From Pseudomonadota bacterium (GTDB lineage: Bacteria > Desulfobacterota > Binatia > Binatales > Binataceae), in assembly GCA_021325355.1 (NCBI GenBank), contig JAJPHI010000016.1, positions 103,733 to 167,732 on the forward strand: 64,000 bases of DNA, given 5' to 3'. The notes below the pieces were generated by a model, which had not been told where the DNA came from, did not search any database, and saw only the letters and a list, made by a program, of their open reading frames with translations. Position numbers and translations under genes: made by a program. Position 1 is the stretch's first letter. Every line of letters starts with the position of its first letter. Below, piece after piece: positions 16,198-56,823 of the stretch.

Positions 16198-17076
16198 ATG
16201 GATATCGGCAAAATCGGCATCTGGTTCTTCCTCGACGGGATGAGCGCGGCGGACAGCGTCGCTTTCGCACAAAAGGTCGAAAAGCACGGCTACGGGGCCT
16301 TGTGGATTCCCGAAGCCGTCGGCCGCGAGCCGTTCGCCCACAGCGCCTACCTCGCGGCCCATACGGAACGACTCGTCTTCGCGACCGGCATCGCGAATAT
16401 CTACGCGCGCGATCCGATTACAATGGCGGCGGCGTCGAAGACCGTTGGTGAGCTTTCCGGCGGGCGGTTTTTGTTGGGCATCGGCGTGAGCCATAAGCCG
16501 CTCGTCACGAATCTGCGCGGCCATTCCTACGACAAGCCCTACAGCTACATGAAGGAATATCTGCCGAAGATGAAGGGTGCGCTTTATCGCGCACCGCTGC
16601 CGAAGGAAGAGGTGCCGGTGGTTATCGCCGCCCTGCATCCGAAGATGCTCGCGCTGGCGGCCGAGCAGACGCAGGGTACGCATACCTATTTCGTTCCGCC
16701 AGAACACACCGCGAAGGCCCGCGCGGCAATCGGCCCGAAGCCGTGGATCTGCGCGGCGCAGGCGGTGATTCTCGAGACCGATCCCGGCAAAGCGCGCGCG
16801 ATGGCGCGCACCTATATGAAGACCTACGTACCGCGCCTGCCCAACTACACGAACAATCTGAAGGCGCTCGGCTGGCAGGACAAGGATTTCGAGAACGGCT
16901 GCAGCGACGCGTTGGTCGATGCGATCGTCGCCTGGGGCAGCGCCGATAAGATTCGCGATCGTATCGAGGCGCATCTCAAGGCCGGAGCCACGCACGTGTG
17001 CATCCTGCCGATTCGCGTCGATAACGAAGCGCTGCCCGATCCGCGCGTGCTCGAAGCGCTCGCGCCGCGCAATTAA
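16198..17076 (+). CDS. LLM class flavin-dependent oxidoreductase (luciferase-like monooxygenase family)
   Basis: The start was moved to the in-frame ATG at 16198 (MDIGKIGIWFF...). This is a TIM-barrel LLM signature protein. Confidence 0.8.
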   Translation: MDIGKIGIWFFLDGMSAADSVAFAQKVEKHGYGALWIPEAVGREPFAHSAYLAAHTERLVFATGIANIYARDPITMAAASKTVGELSGGRFLLGIGVSHKPLVTNLRGHSYDKPYSYMKEYLPKMKGALYRAPLPKEEVPVVIAALHPKMLALAAEQTQGTHTYFVPPEHTAKARAAIGPKPWICAAQAVILETDPGKARAMARTYMKTYVPRLPNYTNNLKALGWQDKDFENGCSDALVDAIVAWGSADKIRDRIEAHLKAGATHVCILPIRVDNEALPDPRVLEALAPRN

Positions 17077-17092
17077 ACCGGTGCCGAGCGGT

Positions 17093-17395
17093 TTGTCGCG
17101 CGGGCGGTGCTGGTTAGCTCCACTGCTCTGCTCGGCGGTGCTGATCGCCGCAGGCGCGCTTAGCGGATGCGGTCCGTCGCAGGCCGAGCTGAATCAGGAG
17201 ATCCAGCAGGCGCAGGAAGCGCAGGCGCGCGCCGCGGCCGCCGAGGCTGAAGCCCAAAAGGCGCAGGCCGCGGCCGCCGCGGCAACTGCGGCCGCCGATC
17301 GGGCGCGCAAGTCCGTCGATGACGCGACGGCCGAAATCAACCGTGTCAGCGAACATATCGATCAGATGCAGAGCGAGGAGAACAGCGAGCGCTGA
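17093..17395 (+). CDS. small Ala/Gln-rich coiled-coil lipoprotein (TTG or GTG start)
   Basis: No ATG is available. TTG at 17093 (or GTG at 17081) gives a signal peptide ending in the lipobox LSGC. The mature part is an AQ-rich helical region (QQAQEAQARAAAAEAEAQKAQAAAAA). Confidence 0.35.
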   Translation: MSRGRCWLAPLLCSAVLIAAGALSGCGPSQAELNQEIQQAQEAQARAAAAEAEAQKAQAAAAAATAAADRARKSVDDATAEINRVSEHIDQMQSEENSER

Positions 17396-19990: not shown

Positions 19991-21814
19991 TTAGCGCGAA
20001 AACTGCTCCAGGACTCCCTTCTGCAGGGCGTCGCGGATGGCAAAATCCATGATTCGTTCGGCAAACGGGCGGCTTACTTCGTTGAGTTCCTCGACCAGCC
20101 GCACGATTAATTGCCGATCGTTACCGGCGCGTGCCGTTTCGAGTTTCGCCGCCAACCGCTCCATCCTTTCGCGCTCTTCCTGATCGGCGAGTTCTTTATA
20201 TTCCATAAGCTGCTTATGCAGCGCTGTCAGCAGTTGATCGGCATCATTGCGCGCAGTTATCAACAGGCGCTGCTCGATATCCTCCTCACCGCGGTCGATC
20301 GACTCCTCGAGCATCCGCTCGATTTCCTCGTCGGTGAGCCCGTAGCTTGGCTTGACATCGACGGAATGTTCGCGTCCCGTACGCTCATCGCGGGCAGTGA
20401 CGTTAAGGATGCCGTTGGCATCGATCAAAAACGTGACCTCGATCCGCGCCATGCCGGCGGGTTGAGGAGCGATCGGACCGAGTTTGAAGCGCGCCAGGCT
20501 GCGACAGTCCCGCGCGAGTTCACGCTCGCCCTGGACGACGTGAATGTCGACGTGCGTCTGATTGTCCACCGCGGTGGTGAAGGATTCGGTCGCGCTCGTC
20601 GGGATGGTCGTATTACGGTGAATAATGCGTTCGAGGACGCCGCCCATGGTTTCGATGCCGAGCGAAAGCGGCGCCACATCCAGCAGCAGCATGTCGCCCT
20701 GGCCACCCGCAAGAACGCCGGCCTGGACGGCCGCCCCGAGGGCCACCACCTCGTCGGGATCGAGCGTGCAGAGCGGATCGCGGCCAAACAGCTCCTGGAC
20801 GCGACGCCTCACCAGCGGCATCCGGGTAGCGCCACCAACCAGGACCACCTGATCGATGTCCGACGGCTTCAGGCCCGCGTCGGCGAGCGCGCGCCGGCAA
20901 CATTCGAGCGTGCGGGTAACAAAGGGCTCGGCGAGACCTTCGAGCACGTCGCGCCGAAGCTCTTTGGCGAGCCTGCCGCTTGGGGTATCCAGGGCTACCG
21001 GGGTACTTTCGTCGTCCGACAGACGGCGCTTGGCGGCCTCGGCCGCGCTTCGTGCGCGATTCCAGGCGCTCCGGTCCTGCGCGATCGCGCCGCCCGCATC
21101 GCCGAGCAGCCAGTCAACGACGGCGCGGTCGATATCGTCTCCGCCCAGATGCGTGTCGCCATTGGTGGCGAGTACTTCGAAGATTCCGCCCTTGATATTC
21201 AGGATCGAGATATCGAAAGTGCCGCCGCCCAGGTCGTACACGGCAACCTTGCCCTCGGTCGCCTTCTGCAGTCCGTAGGCGAGGGACGCGGCCGTCGGCT
21301 CGTTCAGCAGGCGAACGACTTCGAGTCCCGCCAGACGCCCGGCATCGCGTGTGGCCTGGCGTTGAGCGTCGTTGAAATAGGCGGGCACGGTGATCACCAC
21401 CCGCTGAACCAGTTCACCGCCGAGGATAGCTTCGGCGCGCTGCTTCAGTGACTTGAGAATTTCGGCTGAGATCTCGGGCGGGGTGAAGCTGCGATCGCCC
21501 ACGCTGAAGCGAATCACCGACCCGGAGGTTTCGGCGAAGTTGTATCGTTGGCGGTCGCTCTTATCGAGATCGTCCGCACCGAGACCCATGTAGCGCTTGA
21601 CCGAACGCACGACGACGATATCGGCGTCGGCGCGCTCCTCGAGCGCGATCGCCTCGGTGCCGACAAAGGTCCGGCCCTGAGCGTCGAGCGCCACCACGGA
21701 GGGCACCAAAGCGGCTCCAGTGATCGGGTCGCGCAGGACGTGCGGCACGCCGTCGCGAATCTCCGCGATCAGGCTATTGGTCGTGCCGAGGTCTATGCCA
21801 AAAACGCGATTCAT
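19991..21814 (-). CDS. hscA: Fe-S protein assembly chaperone HscA (Hsp70 family)
   Basis: [17 protein letters not shown] and the other Hsp70 motifs are present. 607 aa, within the isc operon. Confidence 0.95.
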
Positions 21815-21885
21815 TTCGGATTCTAATATCGCGATGCTGTTGCCAAAAGAATTGCTTATAAGGCCGAATGAAAGGACTCTTTTAG

Positions 21886-22536
21886 TCAGGCTGACGGCCG
21901 CGTGTCAAGTGCTTTTTCAATATCTCTTAACAAAGTACGCAGGTACGCTCTTCGGCTAAGGATACTGAGCAACTGCGCGACCGATTCGTCCGGGGGCGCA
22001 TCCTGAACCTGGTCGAGGCTGCAAAAGGTCGCGGCGAGCTCCCGGTCGAGCGCCTCGAGTCGATTTACGATCTCCATTCGCCGTTCGTTTACACGCTCCG
22101 TCAGATCAGACGCATCTGCCGGTACGGCGTTACGGCTTTGCGCAAATTCGGCCAGCTCTTCGTGGATATCGAAGACCATCTCCGCAACGTCTGCGGGCAC
22201 GCGACTGCCGTTCTCGCGCGCTTTACGTCCATGAAGCTCGAGCCAGTAGTTGGCTCGGGAAATTGGGTCGCGTAGGGTTCGATAAGCGCGAGTAAGTAAA
22301 GAAGTTGCAGTCAGGCTGGCTTTGCGAACTTCGGGCCGGGCGGCGGCGAAGCGATCAGGATGAAGCTCGCGCCCCAGCCGATGATAGGTCGCTTCGAGCT
22401 GTTCCGGGGCGATCGTGAGCTTGCGGGGCAGACCCAGAGCCGTAAACAGGTCCACATTTGCGGGCAACGGTCCACTGCAGTTCGAACATTGGAGAGATGG
22501 CTCAGCGAGCCGCCCGCATGACGGACATTGGATCAT
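21886..22536 (-). CDS. hscB: Fe-S co-chaperone HscB (J-domain) with an N-terminal Cys4 zinc-finger
   Basis: J-domain with HPD (RELHPDRF); three-helix C-domain; N-terminal CPSC...CSNC. Confidence 0.85.
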
Positions 22537-22566
22537 AGGCGCGACGCTCGAGCGTCATCCGGGAAC

Positions 22567-22881
22567 TCAGACCGTAAACGACTCGCCACAGCCGCAGGTG
22601 CGCTTGGCATTAGGATTGACCAGGCGAAAGCCGGAAGACATCAGCTCTTCGGCATAGTCGAGTTCCGAGCCGTTCAGGTAGAGAAAGCTTTTCTTGTCGA
22701 CGATGAGGCGGGCGCCGTCGCGCTCGAAGACCTTGTCGCGCTCCTTGGCCGAATCGATCTCCATCCGGTACTGAAGGCCGGAGCAGCCGCCGCCGACGAC
22801 CTTTACGCGGAGGCCGCCGTCGGGCCGATCTGCGGCCAATTGCTTGATTTTACCGACCGCGCGATCCGAAAGCGTAACCAT
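22567..22881 (-). CDS. iscA: IscA/ErpA-type Fe-S cluster insertion protein
   Basis: HesB fold with the C-x(n)-C-G-C triad (GGGCSG ... CGCGESF). Confidence 0.9.
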   Translation of the reverse strand: MVTLSDRAVGKIKQLAADRPDGGLRVKVVGGGCSGLQYRMEIDSAKERDKVFERDGARLIVDKKSFLYLNGSELDYAEELMSSGFRLVNPNAKRTCGCGESFTV

Positions 22882-22893
22882 CGCAAATCCGTT

Positions 22894-23310
22894 TCAGACG
22901 CTCTCCGCCTTCTTCGGCGTCTCGTCCGTCACCCGATGCTTGCGCCAGTCGGTAATCGCTGCCTTGATCGCATCCTCGGCGAGGACCGAACAGTGGATCT
23001 TGACCGGCGGCAGATTGAGCTCCTTCACGATAGCGCTGTTCTTGATCGCCATGGCTTCGTCGATATGCTTGCCCTTGACCAGCTCGGTTACGTAGCTGGA
23101 GCTCGCGATCGCGCTGCCGCAGCCGAAGGTTTTGAAGCGGGCATCTTCGATCATCCCGCTTTCCGGATTGATCTTGAGCTGCAGCTTCATAACGTCGCCG
23201 CATTCCGGCGCGCCAACCACGCCGGTGCCGACGTTTTCCTCGTCCTTGGCAAAGCTGCCCACGTTGCGAGGGTTGTTATAGTGATCGATTACCTTGTCGG
23301 AGTAAGCCAT
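22894..23310 (-). CDS. iscU: Fe-S cluster scaffold IscU
   Basis: Conserved GAPECGDVMKL, LPPVKIHCS and the IscU Cys triad. Confidence 0.95.
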   Translation of the reverse strand: MAYSDKVIDHYNNPRNVGSFAKDEENVGTGVVGAPECGDVMKLQLKINPESGMIEDARFKTFGCGSAIASSSYVTELVKGKHIDEAMAIKNSAIVKELNLPPVKIHCSVLAEDAIKAAITDWRKHRVTDETPKKAESV

Positions 23311-23368
23311 TGTTATTCACCCGGGCGCGGCGCCGGCCGCGTATCAGTTGCAAACGCCGTCTTGTGGA

Positions 23369-24589
23369 TTAGTCTGCCTTCCAAGCCACCGATTTGAGAT
23401 CGATCCCTTCCTTCGCCATTTCGTATAGCGGCGACATATCGCGCAGACGGGTCACTTCGCGGGCAATGCGATCGGTGACGAAGTCGACCTCCTCGGCGGT
23501 GTTGAAGCGTCCGAGGCCAAAGCGGATCGAGCTATGCGCCAACTCGTCGCTGACGCCGAGCGCGCGAATCACGTAAGAGGGTTCGAGCGTTGCCGAAGTG
23601 CAGGCCGAGCCGGAGCTCACGGCCACGTCGCTGATACCCATCAGTAGCGACTCACCTTCGACGTAGGCGAAGCTCAGATTGAGATTACCGGGCAGCCGTT
23701 CGGTCGGATGACCGTTGAGCGAGACCTCGTCGAGGCGTTCGAAGATGCCGGCCTGCAAGCGGTTGCGGAGGTCGGTCAGGCGGCGCGCCTCCTCGACCAT
23801 TTCGCCCTGCGCGACTTCGCAGGCCTTGCCGAAGCCGACAATACCCGTGACATTCAGGGTGCCGGAGCGCATCCCGCGCTCGTGGCCGCCCCCGTCCATC
23901 TGTGCGGTGAGGCGCACGCGGGGTCCCTTCGAGCGTACATAGAGCGCGCCGATCCCCTTGGGGCCGTAGAGCTTATGCGCGCTGAGTGAGGCGAGGTCGA
24001 TGCCGTCGCGCTCGACGTCGAGCGGCACTTTGCCGGCGGCCTGGACAGCGTCGCAGTGGAAGATGACGCCCTTCTCCTTCGCGATGCGGCCGATCTCGCG
24101 CACGGGATGGATCGTGCCGATCTCGTTGTTGGCGTACATGATCGTGATAAGCACGGTCTTGTCGGTGATCGCCTTGCGCACGTCGTCAGGATCGACCATC
24201 CCGTACTTGTCGACCGGCAGATAGGTTACAACCGCCTTGCCGGCCCGCTCGAGCGCGCGGCAACTGTCGAGCACCGCCTTATGCTCGGTCACGCAGGTGA
24301 TGACGTGGTTGCCCTTATCCTTGTAGAACTCGACAATGCCCTTAATCGAAAGATTGTCGGACTCGGTCGCTCCGCTGGTAAAGATGATCTCCTTAGGTTT
24401 GGCATTGATCAGCGCCGCAATCTGCTGTCGCGCACGATCGACCGCCTCTTCCGCTTCCCAGCCGAAACTGTGATTGCGGCTAGCCGCATTGCCGAATTTC
24501 TCGGTGAAATATGGCAGCATCGCCTCGAGCACCCGCGGATCCGTGGGCGTGGTGGCGTGATTGTCCATGTAGATCGGCAGCTTCAGCAT
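23369..24589 (-). CDS. iscS: cysteine desulfurase IscS
   Basis: PLP lysine motif [18 protein letters not shown] active-site Cys loop. 406 aa. Confidence 0.95.
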
Positions 24590-50164: not shown

Positions 50165-50794
50165 ATGGTTCGACGAACAGCGCGGCGATCGCGATCAGCG
50201 CCGCCGACGCTCCGATGGATGAAGACTAACGGTCGCGCCTCTGTTCAATCCGAATACCCGAAGTTTGTGACTTTGTCCGGCGGCGTGCAGGTGCGCCTGC
50301 GTTTGATGGAGCCCGCAGACAAGGAGATGATCCTCGCCTTCGCGCGCGCCTTGCCGCCCGACGATCTTTTGTTCCTGCGCACCGATATCACGCAAACCGG
50401 CGTGCTCGACGAATGGGCGCGCAACGTCGCGATCGGCGTGACGGTCACGCTCATTGCCGAGCTCGATGGCGCGCTTGCCGGTTACGCCAGCCTGCATAAC
50501 GATCAGGCGCGATGGACCCGGCGGGTCGGCGAGATCCGGCTTCTGCTGGCGCCCAGATTTCGCGGCAGCGGACTGGGCCGCCGCCTCGCGGAGGAGATTT
50601 TCCGCATCGGTCAGGATCGTGGGATCAAGAAAATGGCGGCGATGATGACGCCCGATCAGACTGGTGCGCAGGCCGCTTTCGAGCGGCTCGGCTTTCAGGT
50701 TGAAGCGCTGCTGCAGCAATGGGTGGTTGATCGCAAAGGGCGCCCGCGCGACCTGCTGATCATGACCCACGAGCTCGGCGAAGCGAAGGAATAG
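50165..50794 (+). CDS. GNAT family N-acetyltransferase
   Basis: Acetyl-CoA motif A (RFRGSGLGRRLAEEI). The true start may be the internal Met (MKTNGR...). Confidence 0.7.
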   Translation: MVRRTARRSRSAPPTLRWMKTNGRASVQSEYPKFVTLSGGVQVRLRLMEPADKEMILAFARALPPDDLLFLRTDITQTGVLDEWARNVAIGVTVTLIAELDGALAGYASLHNDQARWTRRVGEIRLLLAPRFRGSGLGRRLAEEIFRIGQDRGIKKMAAMMTPDQTGAQAAFERLGFQVEALLQQWVVDRKGRPRDLLIMTHELGEAKE

Positions 50795-50856: not shown

Positions 50857-51642
50857 ATGGACACTCCCGCAACCAGTCACATCGATAAGATCAGGCAGCA
50901 GTTCACCCGTCAGGCCGAAGCTTACGAAGCGGTGCCGATCGTCACCGACCCCGCGTTTCTCAATTATATCGTGTCGATCTCCGGAGTCGGGACGAACGAT
51001 CGGGTCCTCGATGTGGCCAGCGGACCGGGCTTCGTTGCGATGGCTTTCGCACCGCACTGCCGGGAGGTGGTCGGAATCGACGCGACCGACCGCTTCATCG
51101 AGCGGGCGCGTGCGGAGGCGGAGCGCCGCAAGCTTGCTAACGTCGCTTTCCAGTCCGGTCTCGCGGAAAGTCTGCCGCTGCCTGACGGCGCTTTCGATCT
51201 CGCGGTCTGCCGTTTCGCGTTTCACCATTTTCTTAATCCCTCGGCGGTGCTGAGCGAGATGCGACGCGTGGTGCGATCAGGGGGACGGCTCGTCGTGGTC
51301 GATATGGTAGCCTCTGAAGATCCCGCCAAGGCCGCTTATCACAATGAAATCGAGCGACTCTGTGATCCCTCGCACGCGCGGGCGCTGCCGGCTTCGGAGT
51401 TCGAGCGGATGTTCGCGGCCGAGCGGCTCGAAATCACCTACCGGCAAACCGTGCATTCCGCCTACGGACTGAAGGAGTGGCTCGCCCACGGCGCGCCGCC
51501 ACCCGATCGCACCGCGCGGATCTACGAGATGCTCGAGGCCTCGCTGCTCGAAGACAAGTGCGGGCTCAGCGTGCGCCGCGAGAACGGCGAGATCCATTTC
51601 AGTCACGTCGGGGCGAGTTACGTATTGCGGAAGTCAGCGTAA
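50857..51642 (+). CDS. class I SAM-dependent methyltransferase (Methyltransf_11 type), paralogue 1
   Basis: VLDVASGPGF motif I; DLAVCRFAFHHF. Confidence 0.8.
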   Translation: MDTPATSHIDKIRQQFTRQAEAYEAVPIVTDPAFLNYIVSISGVGTNDRVLDVASGPGFVAMAFAPHCREVVGIDATDRFIERARAEAERRKLANVAFQSGLAESLPLPDGAFDLAVCRFAFHHFLNPSAVLSEMRRVVRSGGRLVVVDMVASEDPAKAAYHNEIERLCDPSHARALPASEFERMFAAERLEITYRQTVHSAYGLKEWLAHGAPPPDRTARIYEMLEASLLEDKCGLSVRRENGEIHFSHVGASYVLRKSA

Positions 51643-51649
51643 CCGCGTT

Positions 51650-52444
51650 GTGCCAGAAAGAAGCGTGCAGATGAATCCGGTCGAATCAGCAATTGCGGAG
51701 CGGCAGTTTCGCCGACGTCCGAGCGCTTATTTGCGGCCGACCAGCCCGTCGGATCAGAAATTCATGGGCTTTATGATCTCGGCGGCCAGCGCGAGTCGCA
51801 ACGATCGTGTGCTCGATCTGGCATGCGGGACGGGGGCGGCGACGCTCGCCTTTGCCCAACGCTGTGCCGGCGCGGTCGGCGTCGACGTTTTGACCGAGCC
51901 GCTGAAGCGGGCGCGACTCGCGGCGCTCGAGCACGGCATTGCCAATGCGTCCTTCGTCTTGAGCGAGGTTGAGCGGCTGAGCTTCGTCGATCATTTCTTC
52001 GACGGCGCCCTCTGTCGCTTTTCCTTCCATCACTTTGTCCATCCGGAGAAGGTCTTCGCTGAGATGACGCGCGTGGTGCGGCCGGGCGGCTGGATCCTGA
52101 TCGCCGACATGACCGCGCCGGAAGAGCCCGAGGAGTGCGCACTGCATAACGAGATGGAGCGGTTATGCGATCCGACGCACGGCCGCGCGCTGACCGTGTC
52201 GGAGTTCGAGCGGATGTTCGCCGAGGCCGGCTTTGAACTGGCGATGAAGGTCGCGCGCGACTCCAGAATCAGCGTCGATGACTGGATCAGTTTCGGCGGA
52301 ACGACTCCGGAAAACGCGGCCAGGTTGCGCGCGATGGCCGAGGCCGCCGTCGCACGCGGAACACCGTCACGCTTTCAGCGCGAGGGTGACTCTATAAAGG
52401 TCACCCACAGCAGCGTGACGTTTGTCATCGAAAAAACCGCTTAG
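51650..52444 (+). CDS. class I SAM-dependent methyltransferase, paralogue 2
   Basis: VLDLACGTGA motif I. It shares long identical stretches with the upstream paralogue (RLCDP.H.RAL..SEFERMFA). Confidence 0.8.
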   Translation: MPERSVQMNPVESAIAERQFRRRPSAYLRPTSPSDQKFMGFMISAASASRNDRVLDLACGTGAATLAFAQRCAGAVGVDVLTEPLKRARLAALEHGIANASFVLSEVERLSFVDHFFDGALCRFSFHHFVHPEKVFAEMTRVVRPGGWILIADMTAPEEPEECALHNEMERLCDPTHGRALTVSEFERMFAEAGFELAMKVARDSRISVDDWISFGGTTPENAARLRAMAEAAVARGTPSRFQREGDSIKVTHSSVTFVIEKTA

Positions 52445-53607
52445 CCGTCCGCAGGCCGGCATATGTAGATCGCGGCGCGGGCACCGAGGATCGTGACGGG
52501 AAGGCTGCGTTCGAGGTGCAGCGCGCCCTTGCGCAGAAGCTCACCCATCAGACGCGTTTCAGCAGTGAGCATCACGATACGCCCCCGGGGGTGGATGAGC
52601 CGGCGAAATTCCGTCAGCAGGCGAGGATAGAGCCGTCGATTCTCGGCGTGCGAGCCGTGTCGCATGCCCCACGGCAAGTTGGTGATGATGCGGGTGACGC
52701 TATGCTGCGGCATAGGCACGGCGGTCGCATCGAGGCAATTGAGCGCGATCGGCTGATAGCGCGATCCGAGATTCTCACGCGCCATCGCGAGCGCACCGTC
52801 GTCGCGGTCACCTCCGATAAGTCTGGCGTACCGACCCAGGTGGGCTCGTTCGATGAGAATCGTGCCGACGCCGCAGAACGGATCCAGCACGATATCCTCC
52901 GGTTGAGGATCGGATAGCATCCCGAGCGCGGCGGCGACCGAGGGCCGGAGCGATCCCGGCATGTGCGCGACTTTATAGTCGCGCGAGCGCATCGAGGAGT
53001 CACTCAGGCGGATTGCGAGGAAGAATTCGCGATCCAGCAAGGTCGCCCAGAATTCGACATCGGCGCCTTCGTCGGTAAGACGCCAGGTATGATCGTTCCG
53101 CGCGCTGATCGCGCGCTCGACGGCGCTTTGGAGATTGACGCGCCGAAACTCGTGCTCGCCGATCATCCGCGTCACCACGCGAAAGCGCAGGCGACGGCCG
53201 CTACGAACTCCGGGAGTGAACAGCAAGCGTGTCGGGAGCGCGTTCGCAATCAAGGGGGAGGTGTGCACGGTGGCGCTGATGCGATCCAGGAGGTCGGCCG
53301 CTGCCGGCGCCCGGTGATAACCGACAAGAGCAAAGACATCTTCAGCAGTGCGCATCGCCGGCAACCCGGCGGGTGAGGGAGCATCGAGGATCGCGATACC
53401 CGCGCGGCCCGGAACCGCGCGAGCCCCAAGTTCGCGCACGCCCCTGGAGCGGAGGGCGGCTTCGGCCATTGCCACGGATTCGAGTCCCGGCTGCGTCTGG
53501 ATCAGGTAGGTGTCGGTGGTGAGGTGCAAGCGCGGCGGCGCGTGGCGGGCGCCAAGGTGCGTCCGCCACGCGCCGCCGCGCTTGAGCTGGTTGCGGGTGG
53601 TCGCCAT
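52441..53607 (-). CDS. THUMP-domain RNA m2G-type methyltransferase (RlmL N-domain / Trm14-like, COG0116)
   Basis: DPFCGVGTILIE (motif I) and NLPWG (motif IV) align with the E. coli RlmL motifs DPMCGSGTLLIE and NPPYG. The N-terminal ferredoxin-like/THUMP region begins YLIQTQPGLE. The start is uncertain. I used the ATG at 53607. Confidence 0.7.
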   Translation of the reverse strand: MATTRNQLKRGGAWRTHLGARHAPPRLHLTTDTYLIQTQPGLESVAMAEAALRSRGVRELGARAVPGRAGIAILDAPSPAGLPAMRTAEDVFALVGYHRAPAAADLLDRISATVHTSPLIANALPTRLLFTPGVRSGRRLRFRVVTRMIGEHEFRRVNLQSAVERAISARNDHTWRLTDEGADVEFWATLLDREFFLAIRLSDSSMRSRDYKVAHMPGSLRPSVAAALGMLSDPQPEDIVLDPFCGVGTILIERAHLGRYARLIGGDRDDGALAMARENLGSRYQPIALNCLDATAVPMPQHSVTRIITNLPWGMRHGSHAENRRLYPRLLTEFRRLIHPRGRIVMLTAETRLMGELLRKGALHLERSLPVTILGARAAIYICRPADG

Positions 53608-53620
53608 CGACGTGGTTTCG

Positions 53621-53702
53621 CGCGATGGGCCGGGGAGGCGCGTTCCGCGCCTCCCCGGCCCATCGCGACGCGGACGAAGTGAAGCGCGTGCGCGCTTCAC
53701 TT
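53621..53702. repeat. two consecutive perfect GC-rich palindromes (22-bp and 20-bp stems) at the efp 3-prime end
   Basis: cgcgatgggccggggaggcgcg-ttc-cgcgcctccccggcccatcgcg, then cgcggacgaagtgaagcgcg-tg-cgcgcttcacttcgtccgcg. The second palindrome overlaps the efp stop. There are no U-tracts. Confidence 0.6.
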
Positions 53703-54260
53703 CGTCCGCGATACGTATTCCTTGGTATCCGTGTTGATCGTGATAACGTCGCCTTCACTGACGAAGTGCGGCACCTGAATCACCATCCCGGTATCGGTCT
53801 TCGCCGGCTTCAGCGTGTTCGTGACTGCCGCGTTTTTGTTGCCGGGTTCGGTCTCCACCACTTTCATGGTAACGGTTTTCGGCAGCGTCACGTTCAGCGG
53901 CGTATTTTCAAAAAATTCAACTTCTACTTGAAGATTCGGCGTGAGAAAACCCTCGACGTCTTCGACCAGTTCCTTGGGCAGTGTAATCTGATCGTAGGTT
54001 TCGGTGTTCATGAAATGGAACTCCTCACCCTCGCGGTAGAGGAACTCCATCTGCACCTGGTCGAGAATCACCCGTTCGACGCGATCTTCGGAGCGGAATC
54101 GGTTTTCCGTCTGACTGCCTGTCCGAATGTTGCGGAGCTTGGTCTGGACCATGCCGCGCCAGTTGCCCGGAGTGATGTGATTGATTGTCATGACGCGCCA
54201 GAGCGCGTTGTTGTACTCGATAACCATCCCGGGTCGTAGTTGCGTTGATTGGATCAGCAT
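53697..54260 (-). CDS. efp: elongation factor P
   Basis: 188 aa from the internal ATG. It aligns end to end with E. coli EF-P (C-terminal KEYVSRTK vs GEYVSRVK). Confidence 0.9.
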   Translation of the reverse strand: MLIQSTQLRPGMVIEYNNALWRVMTINHITPGNWRGMVQTKLRNIRTGSQTENRFRSEDRVERVILDQVQMEFLYREGEEFHFMNTETYDQITLPKELVEDVEGFLTPNLQVEVEFFENTPLNVTLPKTVTMKVVETEPGNKNAAVTNTLKPAKTDTGMVIQVPHFVSEGDVITINTDTKEYVSRTK

Positions 54261-54458
54261 TTGTCTCGTTTTCCGATCGAGCCACGGGCGGCGCAGCTCG
54301 CGTGTTGACAAGGAATTTATCCGGTTGCCGTCCCGATTTCCATCGGCAGCATACGAGTGAAGGTTTCGGCGCTCGGCGGTCGACGGCGATTCTTGACAGC
54401 GATGCGCTCGGCATGGTCCTTAACCCATCGAACCGTCACGTATCGCGGGAGAGGCTGA

Positions 54459-55601
54459 ATGAAAGCTGCAGTTTTTTACGGACCCAACCAACCGCTCAAA
54501 ATCGAGCAGGTCGAGATCGACGCACCGCAGGATCGCGAGGTGCTCGTGCGCACGGTTGCCAGTGGCGTCTGCCACAGCGATTTGCATTTCGTTGACGGAC
54601 TGTATCCGTATCCCACCCCCGCGATCCTGGGTCACGAAGCGGCGGGCATTGTCGAACAGGTCGGCAAGGCGGTGACCTATCTGAAGCCGGGCGACCACGT
54701 GATCGCGTGCCTCTCGGTCTTTTGCGGCTTCTGCGAAGATTGCATGTCCGGCCATCCGAACCGATGCGCCAATAAGGAAGCGATTCGTCGCGGCAAAAAG
54801 GAGAAGTCGCGGCTCTCGCAGAACGGCGCGCCGATCAAGCAGTTCGCCGAGCTTTCAACTTACGCGGAAAAAATGCTGGTGCACGAAAACGCCCTGGTCA
54901 AGATCGACCCGAAGATTCCGCTCGACCGCGCGGCCCTCGTCGGCTGTGGCGTGACGACCGGGATGGGCGCGGTACTGAACACCGCCCGTATCGAACCCGG
55001 TTCGACCGTCGCCGTGTTCGGATGCGGCGGCGTCGGCCTCGCGGCTATCCAGGGCGCGCGGATCGCCGGCGCCCGCATGATCATTGCGGTCGATAAGTTC
55101 GAATCCAAGCTGGCGCTCGCGAAGCGGCTCGGCGCCACTCACACGGTCGATTCGTCCCAGGCGGATCCCGTAAAAGCGATCCGCCAACTCACCAACGAAC
55201 TTGCCGGCGGCAGCGGCGTTGAGGGTGGGGGCGGTCTGATGTCGCCCGGGAACGACGGCGTTGATTACGCCTTCGAAGCGGTCGGGATCAAAGAGTTGGC
55301 CGAGATGTGCTTCGAGGCGGTCAAGCCCGGCGGCACCGCGACGATTATCGGCATGATTCCAGTTGGGCAGAAGGTGGCGATTAACGGCGCCAAACTGCTG
55401 ACCGAACGGAAGCTGCAGGGCACCAATATGGGCTCGAACCGCTTCCGTATCGACATGCCGCGCTATCTGGACTATTACCAGCAGGGACGCCTGAATCTCG
55501 ACGACATGATCACGCGCCGGGGTCGGCTCGAGGACATCACCGAGGCGTTCCGGGCGATGAAGGCGGGTGAGGTCGCGCGCACCGTCCTGATGTTCGATTA
55601 G
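54459..55601 (+). CDS. Zn-dependent alcohol dehydrogenase (MDR, class III / formaldehyde-DH-like), paralogue 1
   Basis: GVCHSDLH, GHEAAG, the structural-zinc Cys cluster (CGFCEDCMSGHPNRC) and GCGGVG Rossmann motifs. Confidence 0.9.
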   Translation: MKAAVFYGPNQPLKIEQVEIDAPQDREVLVRTVASGVCHSDLHFVDGLYPYPTPAILGHEAAGIVEQVGKAVTYLKPGDHVIACLSVFCGFCEDCMSGHPNRCANKEAIRRGKKEKSRLSQNGAPIKQFAELSTYAEKMLVHENALVKIDPKIPLDRAALVGCGVTTGMGAVLNTARIEPGSTVAVFGCGGVGLAAIQGARIAGARMIIAVDKFESKLALAKRLGATHTVDSSQADPVKAIRQLTNELAGGSGVEGGGGLMSPGNDGVDYAFEAVGIKELAEMCFEAVKPGGTATIIGMIPVGQKVAINGAKLLTERKLQGTNMGSNRFRIDMPRYLDYYQQGRLNLDDMITRRGRLEDITEAFRAMKAGEVARTVLMFD

Positions 55602-55689: not shown

Positions 55690-56823
55690 ATGAAGGCAGC
55701 AATTTTTCACGGACCGCATCAGCCGCTGACGATCGAAAACGTCGATATCGACGAACCGCAGGATCACGAAGTTCTGGTCCGGACCGCGGCAAGCGGTGTT
55801 TGCCACAGCGACCTGCATTTCGTCGAAGGTCTGTATCCCCATCCCGCGCCGGCGATTCTCGGTCACGAAGCCGCCGGGGTGGTCGAGAAGGTGGGCAGGG
55901 CGGTGACCTATCTGAAGCCTGGCGATCACGTCATCTCCTGCCCGTCGGTTTTCTGCGGCTATTGTGATGAATGCATGTCGGGGCATCCGAATCGATGCTC
56001 GAACCGCAAAGCCACGCAGCGCGGGAAAGACGACAAGCCGCGTCTCTCGATGAACGGCAAGCCGGTGGCGCAATTTGCCGACCTCTCGACCTACGCCGAG
56101 AAGATGCTGCTGCATGAAAACGCGCTCGTGAAAATCACCGACAAGATTCCTCTGGATCGCGCGGCGCTGATCGGATGCGGCGTTACGACCGGCGTCGGCG
56201 CGGTGCTGAATACGGCGAAGATCGAGCCGGGTTCGACGGTCGCGGTCTTCGGCTGTGGCGGCGTCGGCTTGTCGGCGATCCAGGGGGCGAAGATTGCGGG
56301 CGCCCGGATGATTATCGCCGTCGATCAGTTCGAATCGAAGCTCGCGATGGCCAAGCGCTTCGGCGCAACCCATACGGTCGATGCATCGAACACGGACCCG
56401 GTCGAGGCAATCCGCAAGATCGCTTCGCCGGGAAGCGATGAAGGGAGCGACCTGCTTTCGGCAATGACCGCGAGCCAGGGCGTCGATTATGCCTTTGAAG
56501 CGGTTGGCGTAAAGAAGCTGGCGGAGCAGTGTTTCGAAGCAATCAAGCCCGGCGGCACGGCCACCATAATCGGGATGATCCCGGTCGGGCAGAAGGTCGA
56601 ACTCGACGGTCCCAAGTTCCTGACCGAGCGCAAGATTCAGGGCACGATGATGGGCGGCAATCGTTTTCGGATAGATATGCCGCGCTATATCGATTACTAC
56701 TTGCAGGGGCGGCTTAACCTCGATGACATGATCAGCAAGCGGATGCGCCTCGAAGACGTCAACGAGGCTTTTCGCGCGATGAAGGCAGGGGAGGTCGCCC
56801 GCTCGGTCCTGATGTTCAACTGA
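55690..56823 (+). CDS. Zn-dependent alcohol dehydrogenase, paralogue 2 (tandem duplicate)
   Basis: Roughly 80 % identical to the upstream copy, with the same motifs. It has a divergent loop around residues 240-265. Confidence 0.9.
   Translation: MKAAIFHGPHQPLTIENVDIDEPQDHEVLVRTAASGVCHSDLHFVEGLYPHPAPAILGHEAAGVVEKVGRAVTYLKPGDHVISCPSVFCGYCDECMSGHPNRCSNRKATQRGKDDKPRLSMNGKPVAQFADLSTYAEKMLLHENALVKITDKIPLDRAALIGCGVTTGVGAVLNTAKIEPGSTVAVFGCGGVGLSAIQGAKIAGARMIIAVDQFESKLAMAKRFGATHTVDASNTDPVEAIRKIASPGSDEGSDLLSAMTASQGVDYAFEAVGVKKLAEQCFEAIKPGGTATIIGMIPVGQKVELDGPKFLTERKIQGTMMGGNRFRIDMPRYIDYYLQGRLNLDDMISKRMRLEDVNEAFRAMKAGEVARSVLMFN

Follow-up and report, generated by a model that had tools for sequence, protein, structure and literature searches.

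An elongation factor P of Candidatus Binataceae with asparagine at its loop tip belongs to a conserved loop class that may function without modification

A stretch of 64,000 nucleotides (the window) on contig JAJPHI010000016.1 of assembly GCA_021325355.1, positions 103,733 to 167,732 of the forward strand, encodes an elongation factor P (EF-P) with an unusual residue at the tip of its functional loop. The efp coding sequence lies at window positions 53697-54260 on the reverse strand and is an ATG-initiated open reading frame of 187 codons, yielding a 187-residue protein. The 120 closest homologues are all about 187 residues long and share the N-terminus MLIQ(A/S)TQLRPG, which places the start at the ATG at 54260 rather than at the TTG upstream at 54311. 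All three Pfam domains of EF-P, the KOW-like N-terminal domain (PF08207), the OB domain (PF01132) and the C-terminal OB domain (PF09285), score above their cut-offs. The protein scores 224.5 bits with the NCBIfam equivalog TIGR00038 ‘efp’ (cut-off 185.8) and 225.2 with NF001810 (cut-off 161), passing both, whereas it fails both models of the EF-P-like protein EfpL/YeiP (NF003392, 139.7 against 216; TIGR02178, 138.1 against 264). An AlphaFold2 model, with a mean predicted local distance difference test score (pLDDT) of 81.5 that falls to about 62 in the loop, matches crystal and cryo-EM structures of EF-P over the full length (184-190 columns, template modelling score (TM) up to 0.79). Assembly GCA_035650815.1, whose label is Candidatus Binataceae bacterium, encodes an identical protein on its contig DASRGW010000013.1; here and below, the taxonomic names of relatives are the labels of records of metagenome-assembled genomes (MAGs). 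The window protein is a genuine EF-P from Candidatus Binataceae. No promoter-like or U-tract terminator-like sites were found around efp, and the window holds no tRNA genes.

In EF-Ps the tip residue of the loop between strands beta3 and beta4 is usually Lys or Arg; the window EF-P has Asn33 there instead. Its loop consists of the seven residues T30-P31-G32-N33-W34-R35-G36, with codons at 54153-54173 on the reverse strand, read directly from the DNA and with limits taken from the model. The first six codons are ACT CCG GGC AAC TGG CGC, with the AAC of Asn33 at 54162-54164, and the surrounding protein sequence runs H28-I-T-P-G-N33-W-R-G-M-V-Q-T-K-L-R-N. The model has strands at residues 19-29 and 38-44 and a loop at 30-37, so that N33 and W34 lie at the centre of the loop. 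Twelve solved EF-P sequences were matched in a phmmer search with the window EF-P; the five alignments displayed (two to Staphylococcus aureus and one each to Thermus thermophilus, Clostridium thermocellum and Acinetobacter baumannii) are without gaps near the loop. The MAFFT alignment with Escherichia coli EF-P is likewise gapless in this region and sets H28-I-T-P-G-N33-W-R-G-M over F-V-K-P-G-K34-G-Q-A-F. Because the alignments are gapless at the loop, Asn33 corresponds to Lys34 of E. coli EF-P, to Lys32 in S. aureus and to Arg32 in T. thermophilus. The original prediction, made from the DNA alone, had placed Asn at the Lys34 position, and both the sequence strings that it quoted and this placement are correct; a shifted loop that would bring a Lys or Arg to the tip was looked for and is not seen in the alignments, in which the loop is of canonical length and not extended.

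The Asn is also conserved. TPGNWRG is present in 119 of the 120 closest homologues, which are 76-100% identical to the window EF-P (118 with HITPGNWRG and one with HNTPGNWRG), the remaining homologue giving no match to the loop search pattern. Such conservation shows the Asn to be neither a chance substitution nor a sequencing error. In an alignment of 34 sequences reaching down to 34% identity, N33, G32 and R35 are invariant.

Beyond these close relatives, an exhaustive phmmer search of 1.84 billion cluster representatives at 50% identity was made and the 150 best matches were analysed. The tip residue is Asn in 79 of these representatives, Lys in 48 and Arg in 16. The Asn-type loops read TPGNLR[A/G], TPGNWR[G/A] or TPGNKR[G/A], and in 77 of the 79 the Asn is followed by Arg at +2. 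A scan of GTDB with one genome per species and the pattern HxTPGN[LW]R[AG][MFV] found at least 600 species, and all 600 matches listed were confirmed by tblastn. The best 80 of these come from Binataceae and ‘delta-proteobacterial’ MAGs and then from Acidobacteriota, which among the matches listed include Terriglobia, Bryobacteraceae, Vicinamibacterales, Korobacteraceae and others. When the columns of Asn-type and Lys-type representatives are compared, four positions in E. coli numbering change together: Lys34 to Asn (100%), Gly35 to Leu, Trp or Lys (100%), Gln36 to Arg (97%) and Lys31 to Thr (about 94%). Position 35 is Gly in every Lys-type representative. Outside positions 31, 34, 35 and 36 the best discriminating column reaches a divergence of only 0.55. 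The Asn type shares with the Lys type the acidic residue at position 67 (Asp or Glu), K151, and Y182 and R185 at the C-terminus; in the window EF-P residue 67 is Asp and falls in the column of E. coli V68, beside the D-loop contact Asp69. An Asn-type EF-P therefore looks, from its sequence, canonical everywhere except in the loop. These comparisons assign the window EF-P to a distinct, conserved loop class, T-P-G-N-[L/W/K]-R-[A/G], which stands in place of the KPGKG(x)A loop found in the Lys type, and it is not a lone oddity; the separate EF-P subfamily that the original prediction had proposed corresponds to this class, shared by the 79 representatives and by the GTDB species.

EF-Ps of this kind have been recorded before. 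In 2010, Bailly and de Crecy-Lagard counted an Asn tip in 2.2% of EF-Ps, and Volkwein (2019; PMC6544042) found Asn in 2.23% of 1166 EF-Ps, in 100% of cases together with Pro32, in genomes that carry a deoxyhypusine-synthase-like gene. The window EF-P, with P31-G32-N33, has the same combination of Asn34 and Pro32. In Dataset S1 of that study paralogues are given in separate rows, and six of its Asn-type genomes were inspected: Chlorobaculum tepidum, Chloroflexus aurantiacus, Acidobacterium capsulatum, Terriglobus and two of Granulicella. All six have a single EF-P row, are negative for EpmA, EpmC, EarP and YmfI, and are positive for deoxyhypusine synthase (DHS). Two reviews of 2026 and the survey of Brewer and Wagner (2024) state that the activation mode of about half of EF-Ps is unknown; none of the three discusses the Asn type, and a literature search found no experimental study characterising any Asn-type EF-P. 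Since the Asn tip was catalogued in 2010 and 2019, the window EF-P is not the first of its kind. It is a new member, from a lineage outside the published datasets, of a recorded but mechanistically unexplained class.

The established EF-P activation chemistries, beta-lysylation, rhamnosylation and 5-aminopentanolation, need a Lys or Arg at the tip, as the original prediction had pointed out, and cannot act on Asn33; they are inapplicable to an Asn tip. Precomputed Pfam annotation of the window and its flanks (some 20 kb), about 85 kb of annotated contig in all, contains none of the families of EpmA, EpmB and EarP (including tRNA-synt_2 and lysine-aminomutase), so that the reported lack of an adjacent epmA or earP holds over this wider region. 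A single gene there encodes a short-chain dehydrogenase/reductase (SDR), the class to which YmfI belongs; it is a generic adh_short gene and lies about 46 kb away from efp. A second EF-P was found neither in the window nor in the loci fetched for comparison, in which genes were called with a filter on GC content at third codon positions (GC3), the genomes being GC-rich. Across 70 Asn-type loci outside Binataceae, no conserved candidate modifier lies beside efp. The commonest efp-near families in these loci are a phosphoribosyltransferase, SelA, a glutamine amidotransferase (GATase) and an acylphosphatase, followed by an AMIN-domain protein, TrpE, a MacB/FtsX permease and a histidine kinase, each in at most 22 loci; these commonest neighbours are housekeeping genes.

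The same neighbourhood method has the power to find a partner gene, since it flagged an SDR directly downstream of a Lys-type efp. In loci whose EF-P has the loop HRTPGKGNA (the MAGs bear the labels Deltaproteobacteria, Binatota or Dadabacteria), a FabG-like SDR of 255 amino acids starts 3-20 bp after efp (locus L091, 8001-9355; locus L092, 8001-9337). This pair could represent an operon for YmfI-like modification of EF-P outside Firmicutes. The closest Lys-type representatives carry the MAG labels Aminicenantes, Margulisbacteria, Deltaproteobacteria, Dadabacteria and Binatota, none of them Binataceae, and no synteny links the Lys-type loci to the Asn-type locus.

Directly downstream of efp in the window, at 52441-53607 on the same strand, lies a gene for an S-adenosylmethionine (SAM)-dependent methyltransferase, 388 residues as called, that resembles the tRNA m2G6-type enzymes Trm14 and TrmN. 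It has the UPF0020 catalytic domain (PF01170, 1.4e-33). Its best NCBIfam match is Trm14, at 96.7 bits far under the cut-off of 280, and a Pfam THUMP domain was not detected in its N-terminus even at E <= 10. The closest solved relatives are T. thermophilus TrmN (3tma) and Pyrococcus furiosus Trm14 (3tlj), and the predicted structure (pLDDT 78.5) aligns with Trm14/TrmN over the full length (362-391 columns, TM 0.67-0.78). The original prediction had called this gene a THUMP RNA methyltransferase: strand and order are as it described and the modelled fold supports that identity, while the sequence models do not and Pfam detects no THUMP domain. The gene follows efp in 12 of 12 distinct Binataceae loci with downstream sequence, although the outer flanking genes vary, and it is found within 10 kb of efp in none of the 70 Asn-type loci of other lineages. 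Among its homologues above 50% identity, those that are named belong, with one exception, to Binataceae or Binatus. It is most simply a tRNA m2G methyltransferase kept beside efp by lineage-specific synteny.

The region between efp and the conserved part of the methyltransferase gene is occupied by three perfect GC-rich palindromes on the same strand. The first, at 53674-53705, overlaps the stop codon of efp; the second lies at 53622-53666 and the third at 53528-53583. Folding of the RNA of 53600-53705, which contains the first two, gives -84.1 kcal/mol, with z = -10 against shuffled sequences. No U-tract follows the palindromes; their sequence is not conserved in other Binataceae, and each occurs once in the window. 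They could be a terminator without U-tract, an mRNA-stabilising array or an insertion resembling repetitive extragenic palindromic (REP) elements. The third overlaps the first 26 annotated codons of the methyltransferase (53529-53607). Residues 1-21 of the enzyme have a pLDDT below 50 and conservation among homologues begins at about residue 24-31; the TTG at 53527-53529 may be the true start, in which case all three palindromes are essentially intergenic.

Taken as a whole, these observations are probably, if by no great measure, best explained by an Asn-tip class of EF-P that works without modification by means of a remodelled loop. The canonical domains II and III suggest that the window EF-P would bind the ribosome and act on the P-site tRNA like other EF-Ps; as to the more specific claim that the class functions without post-translational modification, we put the odds at about even. 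Two-residue beta-turns favour the sequence G-N. A tight turn would accordingly be formed by Gly32-Asn33, by which the seven-residue omega loop would become a stiffer hairpin. On this hairpin the bulky residue at +1 (Trp in the window EF-P, Leu or Lys in other members) and the essentially invariant +2 Arg would face the tRNA's CCA end, and the two side chains would give the contacts with the tRNA CCA and the 23S rRNA that are otherwise provided by the modified Lys or Arg.

Several points weigh against an unmodified, remodelled loop. The E. coli variant EF-P K34N is inactive in vivo (PMC6544042), from which it follows that Asn alone is insufficient; this fits an Asn that works only in a co-evolved loop context. 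The EF-Ps shown experimentally to be active without modification, the PGKGP type and EfpL, all retain Lys or Arg as the tip residue. That W34 and R35 compensate is a proposal, and the low-confidence loop of the model does not adopt the extended hairpin that we propose. The search for a second efp and for a modifier covered the window, its flanks and the fetched loci, and a modifier may be encoded elsewhere. Within Binataceae the pair of efp and methyltransferase survives rearrangements on both sides, which leaves room for a functional link. Lastly, in a neighbour-joining tree built from the non-loop columns the Asn-type EF-Ps do not group as a single clade, the best split reaching F = 0.75, and the non-loop comparison gives a mean identity of 0.40 for pairs of Asn-type sequences against 0.36 for Asn-type with Lys-type; the class may be polyphyletic or the tree simply unresolved, and a single origin is not claimed.

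The alternative that survives best is that the tip Asn or a nearby loop residue bears a new modification, a fourth EF-P activation chemistry, whose enzyme would be encoded elsewhere in most lineages. We regard this as possible but unlikely. It agrees with the inactivity of E. coli K34N, with the fact that most characterised EF-Ps require modification and with the large share of bacterial EF-Ps whose modification status is unknown. In Binataceae the constant adjacency of efp and the methyltransferase, despite differing flanks, and the divergence of that enzyme from the tRNA methyltransferases, seen in its low Trm14 score and the lack of a detectable Pfam THUMP domain, point in the same direction. 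Yet the modelled enzyme fits Trm14/TrmN throughout, including the N-terminal RNA-binding part, strong hairpins separate it from efp in the window, and its named homologues above 50% identity belong, with one exception, to Binataceae or Binatus while the Asn loop is far wider. In the other lineages, the 70 loci hold no modifier candidate conserved beside efp. Nor is N-[W/L/K]-R an N-glycosylation sequon.

It is improbable that the window EF-P is an auxiliary paralogue like EfpL/YeiP, while another gene of the same genome encodes a canonical EF-P of the Lys or Arg type that performs the main rescue of polyproline synthesis. About 11% of bacteria have two efp genes, usually with different tip residues, and the Lys-type cluster with the loop HRTPGKGNA has a member labelled ‘Candidatus Binatota bacterium’, so that a Lys-type EF-P exists in the wider phylum. 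However, the window EF-P passes the efp equivalog and fails both EfpL models, its loop is not extended, and no second EF-P appeared in the window or in any fetched locus; the six Asn-type genomes inspected in Dataset S1, where a paralogue would be listed separately, each have one EF-P row.

A version restricted to Binataceae, in which the T-P-G-N-x-R loop would be modified by the co-located, diverged Trm14/TrmN-like enzyme, for example through N-methylation of the amide, is slightly less credible still. It would draw on an analogy: in translation proteins, Gln amides are methylated by PrmC and PrmB, which belong to the same enzyme class, the target of PrmC being the release factors' GGQ loop, and the enzyme next to efp is of the amino-methyltransferase type, with an N-L-P-W motif. 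The features of this enzyme and of its distribution that have been set against a new modification in general apply to it equally.

The reading with the least chance of being right is that the DHS homologue that co-occurs with Asn-type EF-Ps, as suggested by Volkwein (2019), modifies the window EF-P. A gene of the deoxyhypusine-synthase family (PF01916, 2.8e-72), resembling SpeY, does lie on the same contig, at 16244-17371 of locus L089 and 1.4-2.5 kb beyond window position 1, and it extends the published co-occurrence of Asn-type EF-P and DHS, seen in six of the six genomes inspected in Dataset S1, to Binataceae. This gene passes NF001980, ‘homospermidine biosynthesis protein’, with 579.2 bits against a cut-off of 450, and fails all deoxyhypusine-synthase equivalogs (241.8 against 434, 214.6 against 364 and 185 against 304). 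Diverse bacterial DHS homologues of the SpeY type couple two agmatines toward homospermidine (Li et al. 2026; PMC13625781), making a homospermidine precursor from agmatine; neither an agmatinase nor an arginine decarboxylase was seen beside the DS gene. The gene is about 57 kb from efp, and in no other locus does it lie within 10 kb of efp. In Dataset S1 some Lys-type species are DHS-positive as well. The chemistry of DHS requires the epsilon-amine of a lysine, and here the tip is Asn, followed by Trp. Given the NF001980 score, the biochemistry of SpeY and the need for a lysine amine, the link with DHS is best seen as a coincidence of polyamine metabolism, and we rejected the homologue as an EF-P modifier on account of its homospermidine-type (SpeY-type) score, its distance and its unsuitable chemistry; this reading is largely refuted.

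Comparison with EF-Ps described earlier places the window protein more closely. Published Asn-tip EF-Ps, such as those of Acidobacterium capsulatum (WP_015897933), Chlorobaculum tepidum (NP_661065) and Chloroflexus aurantiacus (YP_001636477), share with it Pro at -2, Gly at -1, the Asn tip and the x-R continuation, in loops such as HRTPGNLRA and HVAPGNWRA. Their genomes have no EpmA, EarP or YmfI and do have a DHS/SpeY homologue, as the window contig also does. Unlike them, the window EF-P comes from Binataceae (Binatota), a lineage that is not in those datasets; it has Trp at +1 (TPGNWRG), where Acidobacteriota mostly have Leu, at about 50% identity, and its Trm14/TrmN-like neighbour is specific to Binataceae. 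Compared with the E. coli EF-P activated by EpmA, EpmB and EpmC, the fold, the seven-residue loop with Pro32-Gly33 and the contact residues of domains II and III are alike; the differences are Lys34 to Asn, Gly35 to Trp, Gln36 to Arg and Lys31 to Thr, with no EpmA or EpmB nearby. In the EpmAB(C)-activated type Lys34 stands in a PGKG motif, and epmA and epmB usually cluster with efp. The EarP-activated type has an Arg tip without Pro at -2 and an earP gene; the window EF-P has an Asn tip, has Pro at -2 and has no EarP family nearby. The YmfI type, with its Lys32 tip and the genes YmfI, YnbB and GsaB, differs as well, since there is no tip Lys here and the nearest SDR is about 46 kb away.

The closest parallel to a loop that would need no modification is the PGKGP-type EF-P of Actinobacteria (Pinheiro 2020; Tomasiunaite 2024), with which the Asn-tip class shares remodelled flanks of the tip, a fixed +2 residue (Pro there, Arg here) and the lack of modifier genes. 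The Pro-Gly-Lys-Gly-Pro motif itself is absent, the window loop reading P-G-N-W-R. The PGKGP type has a Lys tip and is shown by mass spectrometry to be unmodified and active; the window EF-P, with its Asn tip and a bulky +1 residue instead of Gly, is known from sequence, and the Asn-tip class is a candidate only for this modification-free status. EfpL/YeiP has the same three-domain EF-P fold (8s8u, TM 0.78), and EfpL is a characterised member with an unmodified tip; that tip is Arg, its loop is two residues longer and it always occurs beside a main EF-P, in contrast to the canonical loop length and sub-cut-off EfpL scores of the window protein.

Loops of another kind were seen among the representatives: TPGRWKA, TPGRYKA and TPGRYSA, in the EF-Ps P0154, P0194, P0197 and P0219, have an Arg tip with an aromatic +1 residue in place of the usual Gly; sequences in the cluster of P0154 bear the labels Aminicenantes or Acidobacteriota, and the literature consulted gave no description of such loops. 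By their residues, the TPGR[W/Y][K/S]A EF-Ps look intermediate between Arg-type and Asn-type loops. The TPGR[W/Y]K loops, for example that of P0154, have the T-P-G frame, the bulky aromatic +1 and the basic +2 in common with the window EF-P and differ in their Arg tip, which suggests the +1/+2 pair as the element that stays constant.

The Asn-tip class thus forms a clearly delimited part of the roughly half of bacterial EF-Ps without an assigned activation mode. It is large, with its at least 600 GTDB species, mainly Binataceae and Acidobacteriota, including much of the latter, a dominant soil phylum; it is set by four co-varying loop residues, and in the loci examined has no conserved modifier candidate beside efp. 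The window efp is an ordinary member, and its value lies in the class rather than in the locus. If the class does act unmodified through the pair of Trp, Leu or Lys with Arg, it would represent a second independent route to a modification-free EF-P and a useful scaffold for engineered translation. If instead an amide residue of the loop proves to be modified, this would be the fourth activation chemistry of EF-P and the first on an amide residue.

The remaining neighbours of efp are given as context. A GNAT acetyltransferase gene (50165-50794) and two class-I SAM methyltransferase genes (50857-51642 and 51650-52444) lie beyond the Trm14/TrmN-like gene, where the original prediction had noted them. 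They are real by Pfam but on the opposite, forward strand, and tblastn matches them only in contigs of the same species (L001, L002 and L004), the neighbourhoods of L005 and L007 being without them. As there is no conservation beyond their own species, they were rejected as partners of EF-P. The hint that the neighbours bear on EF-P is not supported, these three genes being confined to the species and the Trm14/TrmN-like gene following efp in Binataceae and in none of the 70 loci elsewhere.

Upstream of efp and divergent from it stand two tandem paralogous zinc-type alcohol dehydrogenase genes, at 54459-55601 and 55690-56823 on the forward strand; in 12 other Binataceae loci the upstream position is taken by a protein of about 500 amino acids that belongs to no Pfam family and has a proline/tyrosine-rich C-terminus. 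Further away, at 19991-24589 on the reverse strand, the window contains a complete isc-type iron-sulfur operon with a cysteine desulfurase, a NifU_N scaffold, an Fe-S_biosyn protein, a DnaJ-like protein and an HSP70, and an Fe-S_assembly protein is encoded just outside these limits; the operon is an ordinary one, unrelated to EF-P.

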